Assembly (NCBI GenBank): GCA_947038515.1 | Contig: CAMQWJ010000001.1 | Coordinates: forward strand, 205,580 to 269,579 | Origin: an uncultured Fusobacteriaceae bacterium | GTDB taxonomy: Bacteria > Fusobacteriota > Fusobacteriia > Fusobacteriales > Fusobacteriaceae | Length of the DNA stretch: 64,000 nucleotides | Reading direction: 5' to 3' | Shown here: positions 3,713-43,756 of the stretch, piece after piece | Numbering within the stretch: position 1 is the stretch's first letter | Layout: every line of letters starts with the position of its first letter | The notes under the pieces: generated by a model | What the model saw: the letters and a program-made list of their open reading frames with translations, nothing else | Told to the model about the DNA's origin: nothing | Database searches by the model: none | Position numbers and translations under genes: made by a program

Positions 3713-5272
3713 TTAATTTAATGTTGCAGCTTTATAAACCATCTCAGCTTCTGGACCTAACGGTAGCCCTATTAGACTCCATATTATCATCAATACTGTC
3801 CAACCAAGCATAAAAATCATAGAATATGGAAGCATAGTAGATATAATTGTTCCCATACCAGCGTTTTTATCATATTTTTGAGCAAATGCCACAATAACTG
3901 CAAAATATGACATTAATGGTGAAATTATATTTGTAGTTGAATCTCCTATTCTAAATGCTACCTGTGTAAATTCTGGAGAAATTCCAACTTGCATTAACAT
4001 TGGAATGAAAATAGGTGCCATAATCGCCCATTTAGCAGAAGCTGACCCCATAAACAAATTCACAAATCCAGTTAGAAAAATAAATGCTATAATTAGAGGT
4101 AGTCCTGTAAGTCCTATTTGTTGAAGAGTTGTTGCACCCTTAACAGCCATAATTGTTCCTAAGTGTGTATAACTAAAATATGCAATAAATTGTGAAGCAG
4201 CAAAAGCAAGAACTAAATATCCACCCATTGAAGACATTGCTTTCCCCATCATAACTGCAACTTGTTTATCTGATTTTACAGTTCCTGCCCCAATACCATA
4301 TGCTACTCCTGGTATAAGGAAAAACAACATAAGAGTTGGAACTAAACCAGAGCTTGTCCACACTGATAGAGTTGGTATTAGCTTTGTTGTACCTTTTGGA
4401 ATAGTAAGAGTACGAAGAATTCCACTTTGAGGAACTGTCATATACAACATAATTCCTATAAAAATTAAAAATGATATCCCTGCCCATCTTAAACCTTTTT
4501 TCTCATGTGATGCTAATTCATTAGTAGTTATCTCAGCGTCACCTTCATATTTCCCAAGTCTTGGTTCTACTATTTTTTCAGTTATAATAGTTCCTAATAA
4601 TGTTATTACAAAAGTAGAGGCTATCATAAAATACCAGTTTGAAGTAGCTCCCACAGAATAAAATGGATCTATTAATTTAGCGGCCTCTGTAGAAATCCCA
4701 GAAAGTAGAGGATCTATAGTCCCTATAAGTAAATTTGCTGAAAAACCTCCTGATACTCCTGCAAATGCAGCAGCTAGCCCTGCCAAAGGATGTCTACCAA
4801 AAGATAAAAAGATTACTGCACCTAAGGGTACAAGAACAACATATCCAGCATCTGAGGCTACATTTGACATAATTCCTGCAAAAACTACCATTGCTGTAAT
4901 CGCTCGACGTGGTGTAGCTAAAACAGCTTTTCTTATAACTGCACTCATAAGACCTGTTCCTTCACATACTCCTACCCCTAGAAGAGCCACAAGAACGGTT
5001 CCTAGTGGTGCAAATCCCGTGAAATTTTTCACCATACTATTAAAGATATACCGTACTCCTTCGGCATTCATCAATGATTTAGCAGTTATTACCACCTCTT
5101 TTCCGTCTCTAGTATAACTAACAGTTGTTCCCATATTTGCTACAATTCCTGACAAAACAATTATTATTAAAGAAAATATTAAAAAAATAGTTGCTGGATG
5201 TGGTAATTTATTCCCACCAATTTCTACAAAATTTAAAAATTTGTTAAAAAAACCTGTCTTTTTTTCTTGCAT
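3713..5272 (-). CDS. AbgT family transporter (p-aminobenzoyl-glutamate transporter-like)
   Basis: 519-aa polytopic membrane protein with AbgT-family topology and sequence character. Confidence 0.75.
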   Translation of the reverse strand: MQEKKTGFFNKFLNFVEIGGNKLPHPATIFLIFSLIIIVLSGIVANMGTTVSYTRDGKEVVITAKSLMNAEGVRYIFNSMVKNFTGFAPLGTVLVALLGVGVCEGTGLMSAVIRKAVLATPRRAITAMVVFAGIMSNVASDAGYVVLVPLGAVIFLSFGRHPLAGLAAAFAGVSGGFSANLLIGTIDPLLSGISTEAAKLIDPFYSVGATSNWYFMIASTFVITLLGTIITEKIVEPRLGKYEGDAEITTNELASHEKKGLRWAGISFLIFIGIMLYMTVPQSGILRTLTIPKGTTKLIPTLSVWTSSGLVPTLMLFFLIPGVAYGIGAGTVKSDKQVAVMMGKAMSSMGGYLVLAFAASQFIAYFSYTHLGTIMAVKGATTLQQIGLTGLPLIIAFIFLTGFVNLFMGSASAKWAIMAPIFIPMLMQVGISPEFTQVAFRIGDSTTNIISPLMSYFAVIVAFAQKYDKNAGMGTIISTMLPYSMIFMLGWTVLMIIWSLIGLPLGPEAEMVYKAATLN

Positions 5273-37255: not shown

Positions 37256-37327
37256 AATTTTACTGACAAAAAATATTTTTTAGAGTATAATCTTTCTAAT
37301 AAAACTTAATTTAATTGGAGGTAGAAT

Positions 37328-37861
37328 ATGGCTTTGAAATTTGTAAAACCTAATCTTAAATATATTGATTCATATTTAAATGAACTTATCCAATTGGAAA
37401 AAGAAAATTTTCCTGACTTTATATCTGCTTCTGATATAAAAAAAGATAAAGAAAAATTTATAGAAGATATCAAACTTTGTGAAGGAACAAGATGTTCTGA
37501 GGTCAAACCTTATTTTGTTCCCAGTACCCTATACTGGTTAGTCAATGAAAAAACTAATGAATATCTTGGAAGAGTTTCTATTCGACACTCTTTAGGGAAT
37601 GAACTCTTACAAAAATTTGGTGGTCATATTGGATATGTTGTAGCTATAAAGCATCGACAAAAAGGATATGCTACTAAATTATTAAATTTTGGATTAGAAA
37701 TAGCAAAAGAAAAAGAGTTAGCCGAAATTTTAATAACATGTCGTGAAGATAATCTTATTTCTAAAAAAATTATTGAAAGTGCTAATGCACTCTATATAAA
37801 CTCTCTTTTTTCTGAACAGTCTGGTGTTAATATGTTAAGATACAAAATTATTCTTATTTAA
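37328..37861 (+). CDS. GNAT family N-acetyltransferase
   Basis: Motif A 'IAIKHRQKGYATKLL' (Q/RxxGxA). Confidence 0.7.
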   Translation: MALKFVKPNLKYIDSYLNELIQLEKENFPDFISASDIKKDKEKFIEDIKLCEGTRCSEVKPYFVPSTLYWLVNEKTNEYLGRVSIRHSLGNELLQKFGGHIGYVVAIKHRQKGYATKLLNFGLEIAKEKELAEILITCREDNLISKKIIESANALYINSLFSEQSGVNMLRYKIILI

Positions 37862-37890
37862 ATTTATAAAGTATACAAGGAGAACTTAAA

Positions 37891-38328
37891 ATGAACAAAT
37901 TCTTATTTTTATTATCTTTATTCACTCTATTCCAAGGAGTTTTTGCAACAGGAAATTACCATCAAGAAGTTTTAAATCTTGTTAACAAAGAGAGAACTCG
38001 CCACAATCTAACATCTCTTCATTTAAATAATAAACTTAATAAAGTAGCAAAACTAAAATCTAATGATATGTCAAAAGAAAAATATTTTAGTCATAATTCA
38101 AAAAAATATGGAAGTCCTTTTGATATGATGAAGAAAGAAAAAATCAAATATAAATCTGCTGCTGAAAATATTGCTAAAGGGCAAAAAACTTCTCAGCATG
38201 TTTTTAAATCTTGGATGGAATCTAAAGGACACCGAAAAAACATATTAAATCCTCGATACACAGAAATGGGAGTGGGTAAGGACGATTATCAAGAAAATAT
38301 CTGGACTCAAGTTTTTATTGGGAACTAA
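37891..38328 (+). CDS. Secreted CAP/SCP (PR-1-like, YkwD-type) domain protein
   Basis: Signal peptide. CAP motifs 'HNxxR' ('RTRHNLTSL'), 'GENIA' ('AENIAKG') and 'GHRKNIL..YTEMGVG'. Confidence 0.75.
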   Translation: MNKFLFLLSLFTLFQGVFATGNYHQEVLNLVNKERTRHNLTSLHLNNKLNKVAKLKSNDMSKEKYFSHNSKKYGSPFDMMKKEKIKYKSAAENIAKGQKTSQHVFKSWMESKGHRKNILNPRYTEMGVGKDDYQENIWTQVFIGN

Positions 38329-38365
38329 ACTTATATATCTAAAATAAAAAAACTAGAGAATAATA

Positions 38366-38416
38366 AACTGTAACCATGAAACTGGACACATATAAAAAAG
38401 TGTCTGTTTCATGGTT
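38366..38416. repeat. ~50-bp palindromic element, copy 1 (AAACTGTAACCATGAAAC...GTTTCATGGTT)
   Basis: Hairpin just after the CAP-domain gene. An inverted copy occurs at 39533-39590. Confidence 0.7.
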
Positions 38417-38658
38417 TTTTTTGATATAATTTTTGAAGAAGCTGGTTTAGATGTTAAAATTCTTGAAAAAAGAGAGTAACCGTTGGAGAAAAGCATTTAA
38501 AAAATAAGAGAAATAACAAAAAAAGAACAAGAATATAACAAATTAAATATTATTGAAATAATAGATTTAGAAAAACCTACTCAAAAAATAAAAAAATAAT
38601 AGACTTAAAATTTATTAATATTATAAAAACTAAGTAAAAATATTAATGTGAATAAAAA

Positions 38659-38687
38659 TTGTATTTAATTGGGAAATATAGTATAAT
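38659..38687 (+). promoter_or_regulatory. Sigma-70-like promoter for the Fic toxin-antitoxin module (TTGTAT-N17-TATAAT)
   Basis: Read directly; lies about 40 bp upstream of the antitoxin ATG, which has RBS 'AGGAGTG'. Confidence 0.45.
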
Positions 38688-38723
38688 TAGACTTAAGATA
38701 GAAAGAATTAGGAGTGTGAATTA

Positions 38724-38918
38724 ATGGAAAAATTGAACTCAAAAATAATAATAAGTAAAGTCAAGATAACTATGAGTATAGAAGGTTTTTCAATTAAAAA
38801 AGAACAGATTAAAATTTTGAAAAATATAATCGAACAAAAGAGTGATTCTAATTCTATAATTGAAGAACGAAAAAAAATGTTATTGAATAAAAAGGAAAAA
38901 ATATGGTATGCGATGTAA
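38724..38918 (+). CDS. VbhA-like anti-Fic antitoxin (inhibitory [S/T]xxxE[G/N] motif)
   Basis: 64 aa. 'KITMSIEGFS' contains T-M-S-I-E-G, which equals TxxxEG. Overlaps the Fic start by 16 nt. Confidence 0.55.
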   Translation: MEKLNSKIIISKVKITMSIEGFSIKKEQIKILKNIIEQKSDSNSIIEERKKMLLNKKEKIWYAM

Positions 38919-39514
38919 AAGATTATACTTCTAGAGATACCATTTATATGTATTCAAATACAGATGTTTTTAAAAATAAATTTGATATTCGTGACTTAAA
39001 AGATTTAAAAGAACAAGAAATGTTTTTCACCTCAATAAGAATAACTGACCTACAAATAAAACCTCTTTTGGGTGATTTAACATTTGAACATTTAAAAAAA
39101 ATTCATAAGTATATATTTCAAGACATATATGATTTTGCTGGTGAGACTAGAAAAGTTGATATAGAAAAAGGGAATAGTAAATTTTGTTGTTCCCAATATA
39201 TAGAAATAGAGGCAGAACGAATATTTAAAAAATTGGCGGAAGAAAAACATTACTCTGAATATAATTTTTTGCAATACAGTGAAAAAATAGCAAATTTTAT
39301 GGGTGATCTAATTGCATTACATCCTTTCCGTGAAGGGAATGGTAGAGCAAATAGAGAATATTTAAGAATTCTTTGTTGGAGGAATGGGTACGAACTAAAC
39401 TATAATTTTTTTTCAAAAGAAGAAATTTTGAAAGCAGATATTTTAGCTTTTAATGGTGATATATCTTTATTACTAGAATTGATAAATAAGGGACTAATAA
39501 ATAAAATTAAATAA
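38903..39514 (+). CDS. Fic/Doc family protein (class I Fic toxin, FicT/VbhT-like)
   Basis: Canonical Fic motif 'HPFREGNGRANR' (HPFx[DE]GNGRxxR). Confidence 0.8.
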   Translation: MVCDVKDYTSRDTIYMYSNTDVFKNKFDIRDLKDLKEQEMFFTSIRITDLQIKPLLGDLTFEHLKKIHKYIFQDIYDFAGETRKVDIEKGNSKFCCSQYIEIEAERIFKKLAEEKHYSEYNFLQYSEKIANFMGDLIALHPFREGNGRANREYLRILCWRNGYELNYNFFSKEEILKADILAFNGDISLLLELINKGLINKIK

Positions 39515-39532
39515 AGGAGTATTACCTAAATA

Positions 39533-39590
39533 AACTGTAACCATGAAACAGACACTTTTTTATATGTGTTCAGTTTTATGGTTACAGTTT
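39533..39590. repeat. ~55-bp palindromic element, copy 2 (inverted relative to copy 1)
   Basis: AACTGTAACCATGAAACAGACAC-loop-GTGTTCAGTTTTATGGTTACAGTTT. Its reverse complement matches copy 1, including the loop. Confidence 0.7.
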
Positions 39591-39598
39591 TTATTCCA

Positions 39599-40375
39599 TC
39601 ATATAGTTTTATGTAATGTAGTTCCACTAGCCTGATTAACAGGCATTAATGTTAAATCTGTTATTTGAATATTTTTTGGTAAATTACTTACATATAAAAC
39701 TGTTCCTGCCACATCTTCAGGAGTTAAAGCTTCTATTCCTTTATATACATTGTTAGCTCGTTCTTTGTCTCCCTTAAATCTCACTAGACTAAAATCAGTT
39801 TCTACCATTCCTGGTAATATTGTTGTTACCCTAATTTGAGTATCAACTAAATCAACTCTTAATCCATCACTTATAGTCTTAACAGCACTCTTTGAGGCAC
39901 AATAAATTCCACCACCTGCATAAGCATAATTACCTGCAACAGACCCCATATTTATAACATGTCCTTCTATATTATTTTCTTTCATTAAAGGAACAATCAG
40001 TTTAATCATATACAAAATTCCTTTTATGTTAGTATCTATAACATTATCAATATCATCCTCTTCATTTAAATATATTTTTTCTAATCCTAGAGCAAGTCCT
40101 CCATTATTTATCAAAATATCTATTTTCTTGAATTGATCAGGTAATGATTCTATTTTTTCCTTTAAAACTTTAAAATTTCTAAGATCACAAACACAAATAA
40201 AAGCATTTACTGAAAACTTTGTTTCAATCATTTCTTTTAATTCTTTTAAAGCTTCTTCATTTCTTCCCATCAAAATCAAGTTAGATCCATGTTCTGCATA
40301 TTTAATAGCTATAGATTTTCCTATCCCATTACTTGCACCAGTAACTAATACTACTTTTCCCTTTAAATTGTTCAT
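39599..40375 (-). CDS. Short-chain dehydrogenase/reductase (SDR)
   Basis: 'VLVTGASNGIGKS' cofactor motif, 'NNGG', catalytic 'YCASK'. Confidence 0.85.
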   Translation of the reverse strand: MNNLKGKVVLVTGASNGIGKSIAIKYAEHGSNLILMGRNEEALKELKEMIETKFSVNAFICVCDLRNFKVLKEKIESLPDQFKKIDILINNGGLALGLEKIYLNEEDDIDNVIDTNIKGILYMIKLIVPLMKENNIEGHVINMGSVAGNYAYAGGGIYCASKSAVKTISDGLRVDLVDTQIRVTTILPGMVETDFSLVRFKGDKERANNVYKGIEALTPEDVAGTVLYVSNLPKNIQITDLTLMPVNQASGTTLHKTI

Positions 40376-40475
40376 AATTTTCCTCCTTAAAATAAATTAA
40401 ATATCAAAATTTTGAAAAACAATTCAGTTTTTATTTGATAAGGTATAGTATAACTTCTTCTTTTTTAAGTCAACT

Positions 40476-40889
40476 TTAATTTTTATATGATTCTATTAAA
40501 TGTTTTACTATTGGAATATCTGCTGGAACCCAAACTAAAGATAATAAACTTTCTGGTTTAAGCCAAAGATATGCTTCATGCTCATTAAGTGTAAGTTTCC
40601 CTGCAATAATATCACATTCAAAACAAGTTAAATTAATAATAAAATTTTCTCGTTCACAAATTGTTTCCATTAAAATTTCTTTACTTTTTACTACTAAATC
40701 TAACTCTTCTTTAATCTCACGTTCTATTGCTTTTTCTTTTGTTTCGTTAGGTTCTATCTTACCGCCTGGAAATTCCCAATAATTTCCTAAATCTTTATCT
40801 TTATTTCTTAAAGTACAAAGAATTTCATTTCTTTCATTTTTAATAACTGCTCCTACAACATTTATTATTTTTTTATTGTTTATAGTCAT
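40476..40889 (-). CDS. NUDIX hydrolase (MutT-like)
   Basis: Nudix box 'GGKIEPNETKEKAIEREIKEELDL'. Its start ATG overlaps the stop of the upstream helicase-nuclease as ATGA. Confidence 0.8.
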   Translation of the reverse strand: MTINNKKIINVVGAVIKNERNEILCTLRNKDKDLGNYWEFPGGKIEPNETKEKAIEREIKEELDLVVKSKEILMETICERENFIINLTCFECDIIAGKLTLNEHEAYLWLKPESLLSLVWVPADIPIVKHLIESYKN

Positions 40890-43756
40890 ATAAATTTTTC
40901 CTCCGAAATCAAATATTCATAAAGATGAGGTTCTATTTCATTTTCCATTTCCAAAACATATTTTACTAAATAAGTTTCATCACTTTTTTTAGTTTTAGTT
41001 GCTTCTTTTACATTTTTAACTTTACCTAAATAATAAAAATTTTCACTATTAGTTTTTTTCAAAAATATCTGAATATTGTAATAATTATTTGCAATAAGTC
41101 CTTCTTTTGTAATTTTTCCTTTTCTCTCCAAGTCTCTATTATTTTTAGAAAACCAAGTTAAAGTTTTAGAATTCAAAATTTTATTATCATATGATGTAAA
41201 CGAACTACTCGAATCCAAAGTTATAAAAACAGTTACAATTTTCGACTCATCAAAAATATTGTATCCACTCACTTGCAATCCATTATTAAAATCAAGATTC
41301 AAATATCTATGAGCTTCCTCTTTTGTATAAGATTTAAAAAGTGTTATTGCTTTTTGGGATAATTGCTTATAATTTTTTTCTATATAATTAAAATTATACT
41401 CTAACAAATCTAAAATCAGTGTTTCAAAATACTTATTTTTATTAAGTGATTCTTTAAAATCTTTCTTTAATAAATATGTATTCTTCTCTCCTTTCTCTAC
41501 CAGTGGAAGATAAGATTTTATAGTTGAAAAACTTGTGAAAATTGTCTTCATTAAATGAGAAAAAGCATTTTTAATATTGTCTTCTTGATCATATAAATCA
41601 TGTTTTGTCTCTAATATTTTTTTTATTCTATCCTCATCAATAAAATCATTTTCTATTAAATATTTTAATATTTCAAATTCATGAACTCTTTTTCCTGGAG
41701 TAAAAAACTTAGAAATAAAATTCAAATAATTTTTTTCATTCTCTGACAATTTTTTTGAATAGGAATTATAATCTTTATCAAGTATGCTTAATACTTCATC
41801 ATAATTACCCTTATATTTTAAAACTACACTTGGTTCTATCATATTTTTAGTAAAAAAATCATTTAAATAAGGAGTTCTTCCCAATTGTTTCTTCAACAAA
41901 TTAAAATTTTCTTGAATATTTTTTTTTGTTGAAAAATTCGTATTATTAATATTTTTAAAAATTGTCTCTTTAACTATTTCATCAAAAACTACAGAACTTT
42001 GCCCTGGTATTAAATCTGTTCCACCAGTAATAAATCTTTTCATAAAATCTTTATCATAACTATTATTTTGAGAAATAGCGATAGGAACAAGAAAGTTTTT
42101 ATCATAATTTCCTATAAAATCCAATATCACTACAAACTCTTTATCGACACATTTTCGAAGCCCACGTCCAAGCTGTTGAATATACACTATAGATGAGTCT
42201 GTTTCTCTTAGAAGCACTACCTGGTTTATACAAGGTATATCTATTCCCTCATTAAAAATATCAACGGTAATAATATAATCTAGTTCTCCCTCTTCCAGTT
42301 CTTCAATACTATTCTCTCTTATACTTTCACTATCATCACCTGATAAAAATTTTGTTCTAAAATTATAATTATTAAGAGCTTCACTTAAAAGCTTCCCTTC
42401 TAATCTCCCAGAAACAAAAATTAATCCTTTAACAACTGGTCCACTAAATCCATAATATTTTATCTTTTCAACAATATGTCTTATTCTCTCTTCACTTACT
42501 AAATCATTAATTGTTGATGTTTTAGATATCTCTTTTCCATCAACAAAAATATCTGAAATACCAAAATAATGAAAAGGACACAGTAAATTTTCATTTAAAG
42601 CATCATGTAATCTAATTTCATAAGCAATAGTATGATTAAAAAGTTCATAAATATCAAATTCATCATTTCTTTCTGGTGTTGCTGTCATTCCAAGTAAAAA
42701 TTTAGGCTTAAAATAATCCATAATTTTTTGGTACGTGCTTGCTCCACCATGATGAACTTCATCTACAACTATATAATCAAAAAAATCTGGACTAAATTTT
42801 TTCAAATGTTCATCTTTATTCAAAGTCTGAACCATACAAAAAAAATAATTTGAATTAAGGTCTGAATTAGCTTCATAAATTTCCATTTTGGTATGAGGTA
42901 TAATAGTTTCAAAAGTCTGCTTTGCTTTTGTTAAAATATTTTTTCTATGAGCAAGAAATAACATTTTTTTTGGTTTAACTTTTTTCACATCAAAAGCAGT
43001 TAAAAAAGTTTTCCCTGTTCCTGTTGCACTAATTAAAAGAGCTTTTTCTTTTCCTTGTTTTCTAAGTAATTCAATATTTAAAAGAGCCTCTTGCTGCATA
43101 AAGTTGGGTTTTATAATTTTTTTATTATTAGTACGACTATCTCTATTCCCCATTGGCAAATATCTTTTTTCTCTAAAAGCCTCATAAAGTTCATTATATT
43201 CACTTACCTCGTATTCTGTAAGTGGTTCTAATGAATTATAAAGATAATTAAACTCTTCTAAAATTTCTTTAACAATTTTTCCTTTATCTAAAGAGGTTAT
43301 CTTAAAGTTCCATTCATGATTAGTTGTTAAAGCATTTTGAGTAAGGTTACTACTTCCAACTATTAAGCTCCAAACATTATTTTTTCTAAAGAAAAAACCT
43401 TTAGCATGAAGATTTTCTCCTTTTAAAAGTCTCAGTTTAATATTTTTAAATTCTAATAACCTAGATAATGCTTTTGGTTGTGAAAAATTAAGATAATCTC
43501 CTGTTAATATTTTACCTTTAATTCCTCTTTTTTCTAAAATTCTTAATTGTTCCAATAGTAATATTAATCCACTTTCTGTTATAAAAGCTACTGAAATCAA
43601 AAATTCATCACACTCTTCCAATTCCTGACGAATTGTCATTACAATTTGTTCTTTTCTATTTGTCAATAATCTATGTTGATAAGAATAATTAGAATTCGTT
43701 TCTCTACTAATTAAACTTGTTTCTGCACTTTTTAAAATTTCCCTTGATACTATCAT
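40886..43756 (-). CDS. PLD-like nuclease / SF2 (ResIII-type DEVH) helicase / long uncharacterised C-terminal domain (DUF3427-like architecture)
   Basis: N-terminal PLD-like 'LHAKGFFF...GSSNLT', Walker A 'ISATGTGKT', 'VVDEVHHGG', a helicase-C block, and a ~330-aa C-terminal extension. Confidence 0.8.
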   Translation of the reverse strand: MIVSREILKSAETSLISRETNSNYSYQHRLLTNRKEQIVMTIRQELEECDEFLISVAFITESGLILLLEQLRILEKRGIKGKILTGDYLNFSQPKALSRLLEFKNIKLRLLKGENLHAKGFFFRKNNVWSLIVGSSNLTQNALTTNHEWNFKITSLDKGKIVKEILEEFNYLYNSLEPLTEYEVSEYNELYEAFREKRYLPMGNRDSRTNNKKIIKPNFMQQEALLNIELLRKQGKEKALLISATGTGKTFLTAFDVKKVKPKKMLFLAHRKNILTKAKQTFETIIPHTKMEIYEANSDLNSNYFFCMVQTLNKDEHLKKFSPDFFDYIVVDEVHHGGASTYQKIMDYFKPKFLLGMTATPERNDEFDIYELFNHTIAYEIRLHDALNENLLCPFHYFGISDIFVDGKEISKTSTINDLVSEERIRHIVEKIKYYGFSGPVVKGLIFVSGRLEGKLLSEALNNYNFRTKFLSGDDSESIRENSIEELEEGELDYIITVDIFNEGIDIPCINQVVLLRETDSSIVYIQQLGRGLRKCVDKEFVVILDFIGNYDKNFLVPIAISQNNSYDKDFMKRFITGGTDLIPGQSSVVFDEIVKETIFKNINNTNFSTKKNIQENFNLLKKQLGRTPYLNDFFTKNMIEPSVVLKYKGNYDEVLSILDKDYNSYSKKLSENEKNYLNFISKFFTPGKRVHEFEILKYLIENDFIDEDRIKKILETKHDLYDQEDNIKNAFSHLMKTIFTSFSTIKSYLPLVEKGEKNTYLLKKDFKESLNKNKYFETLILDLLEYNFNYIEKNYKQLSQKAITLFKSYTKEEAHRYLNLDFNNGLQVSGYNIFDESKIVTVFITLDSSSSFTSYDNKILNSKTLTWFSKNNRDLERKGKITKEGLIANNYYNIQIFLKKTNSENFYYLGKVKNVKEATKTKKSDETYLVKYVLEMENEIEPHLYEYLISEEKFI

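Follow-up and report, generated by a model that had tools for sequence, protein, structure and literature searches.

A Fic toxin-antitoxin module bounded by inverted IS3-family ends in a terminator loop of an uncultured Fusobacteriaceae bacterium

The locus and its features

In a 64-kb stretch of DNA from an uncultured Fusobacteriaceae bacterium (hereafter "the window", meaning the whole stretch that was analysed), a small operon encoding a VbhA-like antitoxin and a Fic toxin lies between two inverted copies of a hairpin-forming palindrome. We show here that the palindromes are left-end sequences of a ~1,453-bp IS3-family insertion sequence (IS), and that they bound a 1,224-bp insertion which sits in the loop of the terminator between a CAP-domain gene and a convergent short-chain dehydrogenase (SDR) gene and is missing in some strains of the same species. 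The features of the locus, in window coordinates, are as follows.

37891-38328, plus strand: CAP/YkwD-family secreted protein of 145 aa, the left flanking core gene (PF00188, E 3.8e-21; YkwD is the family name used in the sources)
38346-38363, no strand: left half of the native bidirectional terminator, still in place (A7, stem CTAGAGA, loop ATAA)
38364-39587, no strand: inserted segment of 1,224 bp, in whose place empty-site strains carry 10 nt (ATCTCTAGTT)
38364-38416, plus strand: palindrome copy 1, a left end of the IS3-family element, with the left inverted repeat (IRL) at 38364-38389 (TAAACTGTAACCATGAAACTGGACAC), a loop at 38390-38399 and the internal complement of IRL at 38400-38416, together a hairpin
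38415-38434, plus strand: T8 tract and extended -10-like box (TGATATAAT, 38422-38430), the conserved leader between IS hairpin and orfA
38426-38533, plus strand: decayed remnant of the IS orfA, codons ~50-83 (IIFEEAGLDVKILEKR.., with NRWRKAFKK one frame over)
38659-38687, plus strand: putative Fic-operon promoter TTGTAT-N17-TATAAT, read from the sequence
38724-38918, plus strand: VbhA-like antitoxin of 64 aa, an open reading frame (ORF) with the motif T16-M-S-I-E20-G21
38903-39514, plus strand: Fic toxin of 203 aa with the active-site motif HPFREGNGRANR; the first 16 nt of the gene lie within the antitoxin gene
39531-39591, minus strand: palindrome copy 2, a "closed" palindrome, inverted, with the outer arm at 39566-39591 and the inner arm at 39531-39555
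39588-39598, no strand: rest of the native terminator (T tract and right flank); compared with empty alleles, its right stem TCTCTAG is lost
39599-40375, minus strand: SDR of 258 aa, the right flanking core gene, convergent with fic (PF00106, E 2e-49)

Two inverted copies of one palindrome

Copy 1 (38364-38416) and copy 2 (39531-39591) are inverted and identical at 50/52 positions, loop included. A repeat search aligned the arms 38365-38416 and 39539-39590 (52 nt, 96% complementary), which bears out an earlier note on this DNA describing a near-identical hairpin element and its reverse complement, loop included; the units start at T 38364 and T 39531, one base before the start given there. That copy 2 really is in inverted orientation with respect to copy 1 is clear from the asymmetry of the loop and from a bulge of one base. 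Allowing up to three mismatches, the 18-mer AAACTGTAACCATGAAAC occurs in the window only at 38365, 39532 and 39573 (minus strand), while 0.06 occurrences are expected from shuffled sequences and 0/100 shuffles reached three; the window holds just two copies of the palindrome. Folding energies are -21.7 kcal/mol (z -5.3) for copy 1 and -28.0 kcal/mol (z -7.4) for copy 2. An Rfam search returned nothing beyond sub-threshold miRNA-hairpin noise.

The two copies differ in extent. Copy 2 is a complete 60-nt palindrome, while in copy 1 the right arm stops 8 nt short and gives way to T8 and GATATAAT. In copy 2, the outer arm, facing the SDR gene, is the true, bulged IRL, and the inner arm, on the fic side, consists of the internal complement plus TAAACTGT, the 8-nt tip common to both ends of the IS. 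This closed form is also found solo in two other contigs (L052, L104).

The palindromes are left ends of an IS3-family element

A pattern scan of contigs, taking one genome per species, found true relatives of the hairpin only in metagenome-assembled genomes (MAGs) of Fusobacteriaceae (Psychrilyobacter, Ilyobacter, Cetobacterium and unnamed genera), with 1-2 exact-pattern matches per representative genome, often close to contig ends. In aligned relatives, conservation extends past the hairpin (GGTT-TTTTTTGATAYAATTTTT) and, at several loci, an ORF starting MSKK(L/I)FSD... lies 45 nt downstream of the conserved stretch. A metagenome scan, for which the left arm alone was needed, yielded 13 matches outside the window. 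In 12/13 of these, the hairpin runs into TTTTTTGATACAATTTTTTAATAAG.., followed by the orfA leader and an ATG; TTTTTTGATACAATTTTT comes after the hairpin in these 12 IS-linked copies and also in solo remnants. The upstream flank differs in each of the 12, which places the boundary of the family between T and AAACTG.

Complete copies were then identified. The contig L022 carries a complete element made of the hairpin, orfA (HTH_Tnp_2), an A AAA AAG site, orfB (HTH_21, rve, rve_2) and the right end ...GTCCTTGACAAAGGGGACAGTTTA. In a second full copy (L099), orfA (468-878) is followed by orfB (911-1774) in the -1 frame, the latter scoring 265.8 bits on NF033516 "IS3 family transposase" (cutoff 160); the A6G -1 frameshift site TTTTTAAAAAAGTTA is found in both L099 and L022. 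Two further contigs (L101, L110) consist of the ~1.45-kb IS alone, from TAAACTGTAACC... to ...GGGTACAGTTTA, the IS of L110 measuring 1,453 bp. The sequence of copy 1 opens all four of these full-length copies and matches the left end of L110 at 49/52 positions. The IS terminal repeats are imperfect and ~28 bp long (TAAACTGT...ACAGTTTA), IRL and the right inverted repeat (IRR) matching at ~18/28 positions with identical tips. The 26-nt IRL pairs with an internal complement of its positions 9-26, next to which stand a T tract and a TGnTAYAAT box. Each copy of the IS thus has a hairpin and T tract at the left end, a built-in terminator-like structure with a probable promoter. Candidate 4-bp target duplications are seen in L022 (AAAT/AAAT) and L103 (AAAA/AAAA), a 4-nt match being weak evidence in AT-rich DNA. 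This IS3-family element of marine and gut Fusobacteriaceae is apparently undescribed and unnamed.

The family comprises two sublineages with the hairpin loops CACATAAAAAAG and CTTGAAAAAGAG, and the loop variant co-varies with the variant of the orfA leader. Hence, the hairpin is part of what the IS passes on, not a target that was there beforehand. The idea that the hairpin is the target had been prompted by the right end in L022, where GGGG followed by ACAGTTTA resembles a split full palindrome; it was rejected on account of this covariation, of the 12:1 ratio of IS-linked to solo copies and of an empty site that has no palindrome.

Relics and derivatives of the element were also observed. 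Decayed solo open hairpins occur in L036, L021 and L064. In L103 (5230-5540), a ~310-bp internally deleted IS retains the IRL hairpin, four orfA codons fused to the last ~17 orfB codons, and IRR; this MITE-like (miniature inverted-repeat transposable element), non-autonomous derivative is flanked on both sides by AAAA(A), has the loop variant ATATAAAAAAG as in the window copies, and was found in a sampling project that also yielded window-type contigs. Two Fusobacteriaceae genomes share an orthologous site behind an M16-type peptidase gene; there, one (L102, 9716-10004) has an IS left end with an intact orfA start and the other (L008, 3300-3500) a hairpin and a decayed orfA remnant (..RWKKAFK..LKDSKRNSSG), which indicates that the IS decays in place. 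In Psychrilyobacter bin.5, the start of an unrelated transposase-like ORF (MNTRKTYSSKFKFKIVLEAFTERE) splits the orfA of a hairpin IS (L059, 370-516), indicating nested IS insertions; the same ORF start is found at the end of another contig of that MAG (L021, 7338-7409). A fragmentary relic in a Psychrilyobacter MAG (L021, 4794-4830) is made of a truncated left arm and loop (TAAACTGTAACCATGAAATTGGACACTTTAAAAAGAG) beside an unrelated terminator hairpin.

Some strains of the species lack the insertion

Variants of the CAP and SDR proteins led to further contigs from this species, with flanks that are ~99% identical. Three states of the site were distinguished. In the empty state, E (L123, L124, L128), the CAP stop codon, AAAAAAACTAGAGAATAAATCTCTAGTTTTTTT and the SDR stop codon follow one another with no hairpin element and no fic, and the terminator is perfect and bidirectional (-18.1/-20.0 kcal/mol, z -9.4/-7.7). 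By blastn against L123, window positions 38300-38363 correspond to 4410-4473 and 39588-39660 to 4484-4556. The three empty contigs are thus without exactly 38364-39587 and their native terminator is intact. The outer tips of the two palindrome copies mark the limits of the indel. In the cassette state, W, comprising 16 contigs (the window and 15 others), the insertion follows the loop ATAA and the right stem is lost; all 16 share one identical architecture and orientation.

In the third state, R (L125, L126; samples ERZ27297900 and ERZ4740408), GAGAATAA is followed at the same nucleotide by TAAACTGTACACTTTATCAAGGACAC..., which is the right end of an oppositely oriented IS and matches the IRR of L110 at 33/36 positions. 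A contig from the same sample as L125 (L127) contains the SDR-side junction and an IRL, both identical to copy 2 outer arm and junction, including two SNPs private to copy 2. A flank SNP of L127 matches the E contigs and is found in 0/16 W contigs. L127 ends (4826-4869) in an Illumina adapter (AGATCGGAAGAGCGTCGTGTAGGGAAAGAGTGT) fused within the hairpin loop, an assembly artefact that hides the interior of the allele. State E is ancestral, because the lost half-stem cannot be restored by excision. W and R appear to share both junctions and therefore most likely descend from one common insertion.

These comparisons uphold the suggestion of the earlier note that a discrete cassette was inserted here, with the CAP-domain gene on one side and the convergent SDR gene on the other, and that the repeats are the footprint of the event that delivered it. 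The syntenic comparison that the note had called for shows the 1.2-kb segment to be missing from some same-species strains, the module not being universal. The opposite picture, a high-copy terminator motif beside a module present in all relatives, does not describe this locus: the element is low-copy and IS-linked.

Some strain variation was noted around the site. In one strain (L118, 2931-6058), a 3.1-kb GNAT-CAP-cassette-SDR block corresponding to window 37256-40392 is 98% identical and has different outer neighbours, i.e. an ABC-transporter substrate-binding gene on the left and, replacing the NUDIX gene on the right, an MwoI-like restriction enzyme and a DNA methylase; this context represents either a strain-level rearrangement or a restriction-modification insertion beside the cassette. 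Just past the SDR gene of the window, a 956-aa PLD-nuclease/helicase/DUF3427 protein (40886-43756, minus strand) is translationally coupled to a NUDIX hydrolase (40476-40889, minus strand), a pair suggestive of a defence function. Between strains, the helicase region is noticeably less conserved (96.6-97.9%) than the left flank (~99.3%).

The passenger is a class I Fic module

The 203-aa toxin matches PF02661 (E 5e-14) and the NCBIfam VbhT model (E 3.5e-46, positions 3-195), its closest solved homologue is the VbhT FIC domain (3zcb/3shg, E 2.5e-35), and its active site fits the motif HxFx(D/E)GNGRxxR. In the antitoxin, TMSIEG fits the (S/T)xxxE(G/N) inhibitory motif of class I Fic antitoxins; across four homologues, the motif column reads [ST]xxIE[GD], with IE invariant and S/T conserved. 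The pair was thus rightly recognised as vbhA-like/fic in the earlier note. Fic modules with 57-63% identity are present in other Fusobacteriaceae, in unrelated neighbourhoods and with a shared promoter: the predicted TTGTAT-N17-TATAAT promoter, which the note had also picked out, is kept upstream of them, and the box (AATTGTATTTA..TATAGTATAAT) precedes the modules of L085 and L094, window homology starting there. No hairpins were found around the homologous modules of L085, L088 and L094. Together, these results indicate that promoter, antitoxin and toxin form an evolutionarily mobile module from which the hairpins are separate. The homologous modules elsewhere have a terminator of their own; in the window, the 3' flank of fic ends abruptly, without its own terminator, and copy 2 starts 17 nt past the fic stop codon.

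Remains of orfA upstream of the module

The space between copy 1 and the Fic operon had been described as only an AT-rich leader of ~300 bp. This does not hold, as its first ~110-170 nt are a decayed orfA remnant. By blastn, the remnant is 71% identical to L099 255-347 (E 4e-11), 75% identical to L101 over 124 nt (E 2e-18) and 73% identical to L110 (E 3e-16), and in a tblastn search with L099 orfA the best match in the whole window is the remnant site (E 0.002). The remnant is frameshifted, has a 13-14-nt internal deletion and is without the first ~49 codons. Its junction lies within AATTTTT, a sequence common to leader and coding sequence, which is consistent with loss of those codons by a microhomology deletion. 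A tblastn search found no orfB remnant anywhere in the window; the orfA fragment is all that is present, with no transposase.

Target preference and predicted terminator function

We examined where the IS inserts. When the target of the L022 copy is rebuilt, it is a hairpin with a 14-bp stem, and the IS lies in its 4-nt loop, which appears to have been duplicated (AAAT). With the E site, this makes two cases of the IS in the loop of a perfect hairpin. A run of A6 or longer is present within 35 nt in 16/24 IS end flanks, compared with 10.5% of random positions, and many insertions are 20-40 nt past a stop codon. This suggests that the IS targets intrinsic terminators. At these insertion sites (left flanks of IS ends in L099, L100, L102, L104, L105, L113, L036, L052 and L054, and window 38346-38363), which lie directly 3' of genes, the strongly enriched A6-A8 run precedes a short stem richer in GC.

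The IS ends themselves resemble terminators. Both window copies form a stable hairpin followed by a U tract, as in intrinsic terminators: T8 after copy 1, and T5 (plus strand) or TTTATTT (minus strand) after copy 2. A simple terminator scanner missed both because their loops exceed 8 nt. Copy 1 most likely would end CAP transcription and insulate the toxin operon, the T8 within 38415-38434 being the presumed U tract of the CAP-gene terminator and the adjacent box the presumed orfA promoter. Oriented towards the cassette interior, that box (TGATATAAT) could contribute further transcription. Between fic and the convergent SDR gene, nothing but copy 2 resembles a terminator; copy 2 most likely would end the transcription of both genes and so replace the terminator destroyed by the insertion.

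A tentative idea, which we regard as somewhat doubtful, is that the element is a "terminator-swapping" IS, one that seeks terminator loops, destroys or splits them, and supplies a replacement hairpin in its own left end. If so, insertions would be nearly neutral, and the ends would outlive the transposase as working terminators, in the form of the solo open and closed palindromes. In this way, any small operon with a terminator on either side (a toxin-antitoxin pair, for example) would easily become bracketed and turn into a mobile cassette.

Origin of the cassette

The locus is probably a decayed composite transposon or the remnant of a mobile insertion cassette, organised as IS(forward)-FicTA-IS(reverse) with the IRLs outward; we hold this with moderate confidence. 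The route that we infer is the following. A terminator-seeking IS would have landed on both sides of the Fic operon elsewhere, creating a composite, which would then have moved into the CAP/SDR terminator loop. Internal deletions would have taken out both transposase genes, giving rise to W, while loss of the DNA between the TAAACTGTA direct repeats in IRL-A and IRR-B would have left the reverse IS alone, giving rise to R. This model accounts for the outward IRLs, the extra TAAACTGT in copy 2, the abrupt 3' flank of fic and the orfA remnant upstream. Features expected of a mobile cassette are present, i.e. inverted IS-type ends at both limits, and passenger genes with no functional transposase inside.

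Several observations weigh against this interpretation or parts of it. Firstly, no target-site duplication surrounds the 1.2-kb unit, 10 target nt being missing instead, and none was found for the unit or for copy 2 alone under several choices of terminus. The exact Fic protein or cassette unit is at no second locus, and an intact composite, with two full IS around fic, was not seen. Movement as a unit is thus unsupported by target-site duplications or other loci, and presence/absence alone is no proof of unit transposition. Secondly, the R allele is seen at contig ends only (50 nt of IRR in L125/L126 and 40 nt of IRL in L127), and the linkage of L125/L126 to L127 rests on the shared sample and one flank SNP. 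SDR orthologues of other species (P0123, P0124, P0131) are non-syntenic and have no hairpin, which leaves the comparison without a deeper outgroup. Thirdly, TG/CA, terminal in canonical IS3 elements, sits 5 nt inside the IS boundary, which is set by 14 different left flanks. Finally, the terminator and promoter activities are predictions from sequence, and the antitoxin has no match in Pfam, NCBIfam or PDB sequences, so that its VbhA-like assignment rests on motif, size and position.

The strongest competitor, which we judge unlikely and yet worth serious attention, is stepwise assembly in place: an IS in the terminator loop decayed to copy 1 and the orfA remnant; copy 2 came in as a 60-bp closed MITE-like element or as a second, reverse IS at the same hot spot; Fic entered by illegitimate recombination or by replacement of the IS interior; and the 1.2-kb unit never moved as one. 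The site has indeed been struck in both orientations (L125/L126 versus the window), the IS prefers terminator loops, closed palindromes exist solo (L052, L104), and the unit is without duplication and without a second locus. There is also precedent in IS1272/TnSha1, which hits one terminator repeatedly, independently and in both orientations (PMC4923244). However, assembly in place demands at least three independent events within 1.2 kb and leaves the entry of fic unexplained. Moreover, 16/16 W contigs have one architecture, no intermediate such as a forward IS without fic was found, and the R allele appears to share the copy 2 junction and its private SNPs, pointing to common descent. Under the composite and stepwise readings alike, the cassette is IS-delimited.

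Far less probable is that the hairpins are a generic REP-like (repetitive extragenic palindrome) or terminator repeat family without causal tie to Fic, beside which an IS merely inserts. Solo hairpins do lie just 3' of genes in several genomes (L036, L021, L064, L052), and the IS3-family element IS1397 targets REP loops (PMC1525189). Against this stand the low copy number (two in 64 kb and 1-2 exact-pattern matches per representative genome), the IS linkage of 12/13 metagenome matches, the covariation of loop variant and IS interior, an imperfect repeat at the IS right end that matches and has the same tip (TAAACTGT), the contigs L101 and L110 in which the IS alone begins at the hairpin, and the absence of the hairpin from the empty site and from SDR orthologues of other species. 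An actual REP/RAYT-type (REP/BIME, bacterial interspersed mosaic element) family, of which tens to hundreds of copies per genome independent of IS bodies would be expected, was rejected on the low copy number in the window and in representative genomes and on IS linkage. The earlier note had offered a REP/MITE-like family doubling as terminators; the REP and generic terminator part of this falls away, and MITE-like comes closer, as the repeats are IS3-family ends.

Toxin-antitoxin cassettes are common in chromosomal integrons, and here a 1.1-kb segment with its own promoter lies between inverted repeats of 96% identity; an invertible switch or attC-like integron-cassette sites are nevertheless the least probable explanation of all, since 16/16 occupied contigs have the same orientation with no inverted variant found, no recombinase or integrase lies within 10 kb, the arms CTGTAAC / GTTACAG do not fit the attC core RYYYAAC/GTTRRRY, and the repeats are fully explained as IS ends. 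Two lesser ideas were also discarded. Snap-back synthesis as the origin of the closed palindrome predicts an inverted flank copy, which is absent, and the inverted match GAATAA in the outer flanks comes from the terminator loop on one side and from AT-rich flank on the other.

Implications and comparison with known systems

The locus provides a base-resolved case, with empty, IS-only and cassette alleles in one species, of toxin-antitoxin gain through IS ends, and it shows how IS ends may replace a terminator that they disrupt. It also calls for caution in annotation, as what looks like a short, conserved "terminator palindrome" in an AT-rich genome can turn out to be an IS relic. Current concepts are unchanged; the value lies in a clean case study and in a lead on the choice of targets by the IS3 family. 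Of greatest interest is a possible terminator-targeting and terminator-carrying lifestyle of this IS.

With the IS3 family (IS150, IS911, IS1397), the full copies share an HTH (helix-turn-helix) orfA, the A6G site, an rve orfB, ~28-bp imperfect repeats, a length of ~1.45 kb and, in L022, a candidate 4-bp duplication; these family features are read in related full copies, whereas the window itself holds ends and an orfA fragment only. The present IS differs in its tips (TAAACTGT...ACAGTTTA) and in that IRL and its own complement form a built-in terminator-type hairpin. IS1397 inserts into the loops of extragenic palindromes, REP (PMC1525189), while the targets of this IS look like ordinary intrinsic terminators.

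In staphylococci, IS1272/TnSha1 enters terminator hairpins with partial deletion of the hairpin, without duplication and in both orientations at one terminator, and TnSha1 arose when an IS landed in the terminator of a cargo gene (PMC4923244). Insertion in a terminator hairpin, partial loss, lack of duplication and hits on one terminator in both orientations are shared with the window site, as is the position of an IS end close behind the cargo, copy 2 being 17 nt past the fic stop. However, IS1272 belongs to the IS1182 family, TnSha1 keeps an intact IS, and the present IS in L022 keeps both stems and appears to duplicate the loop.

As regards the passenger, VbhA/VbhT of Bartonella schoenbuchensis, a class I FicTA, provides the closest FIC domain and likewise has a small, upstream, overlapping antitoxin with (S/T)xxxE(G/N). 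VbhT has a BID/secretion domain, which the window toxin is without (203 aa versus 419 in the model), and the window antitoxin resembles VbhA in the motif, with no further detectable sequence homology.

MITE-type IS derivatives can act as terminators, e.g. the Correia elements of Neisseria. As with these, short IS-end palindromes of the present element persist in intergenic DNA and may supply terminators; copy 2, the solo palindromes of L052 and L104 and the 310-bp L103 derivative are of this type. The closed palindromes, at 60 bp, are far smaller than typical MITEs, their copy number is low and their terminator role is a predicted one.

In mobile insertion cassettes and composite transposons, IS ends or whole IS flank passenger genes (MIC231 of the Bacillus cereus group; Tn10/Tn5-type). 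The window differs from these in that both ends are IRL instead of IRL and IRR, in having no target duplication and in being known from one locus, so that its mobility as a unit is presumed. It shares with them a FicTA passenger between inverted IS ends, no transposase inside, presence/absence between strains and outward transposase-type ends. The locus thus joins known kinds, the IS3 family, the mobile insertion cassette or composite remnant and the class I FicTA, in what is a clear yet ordinary example of IS-mediated gene gain.

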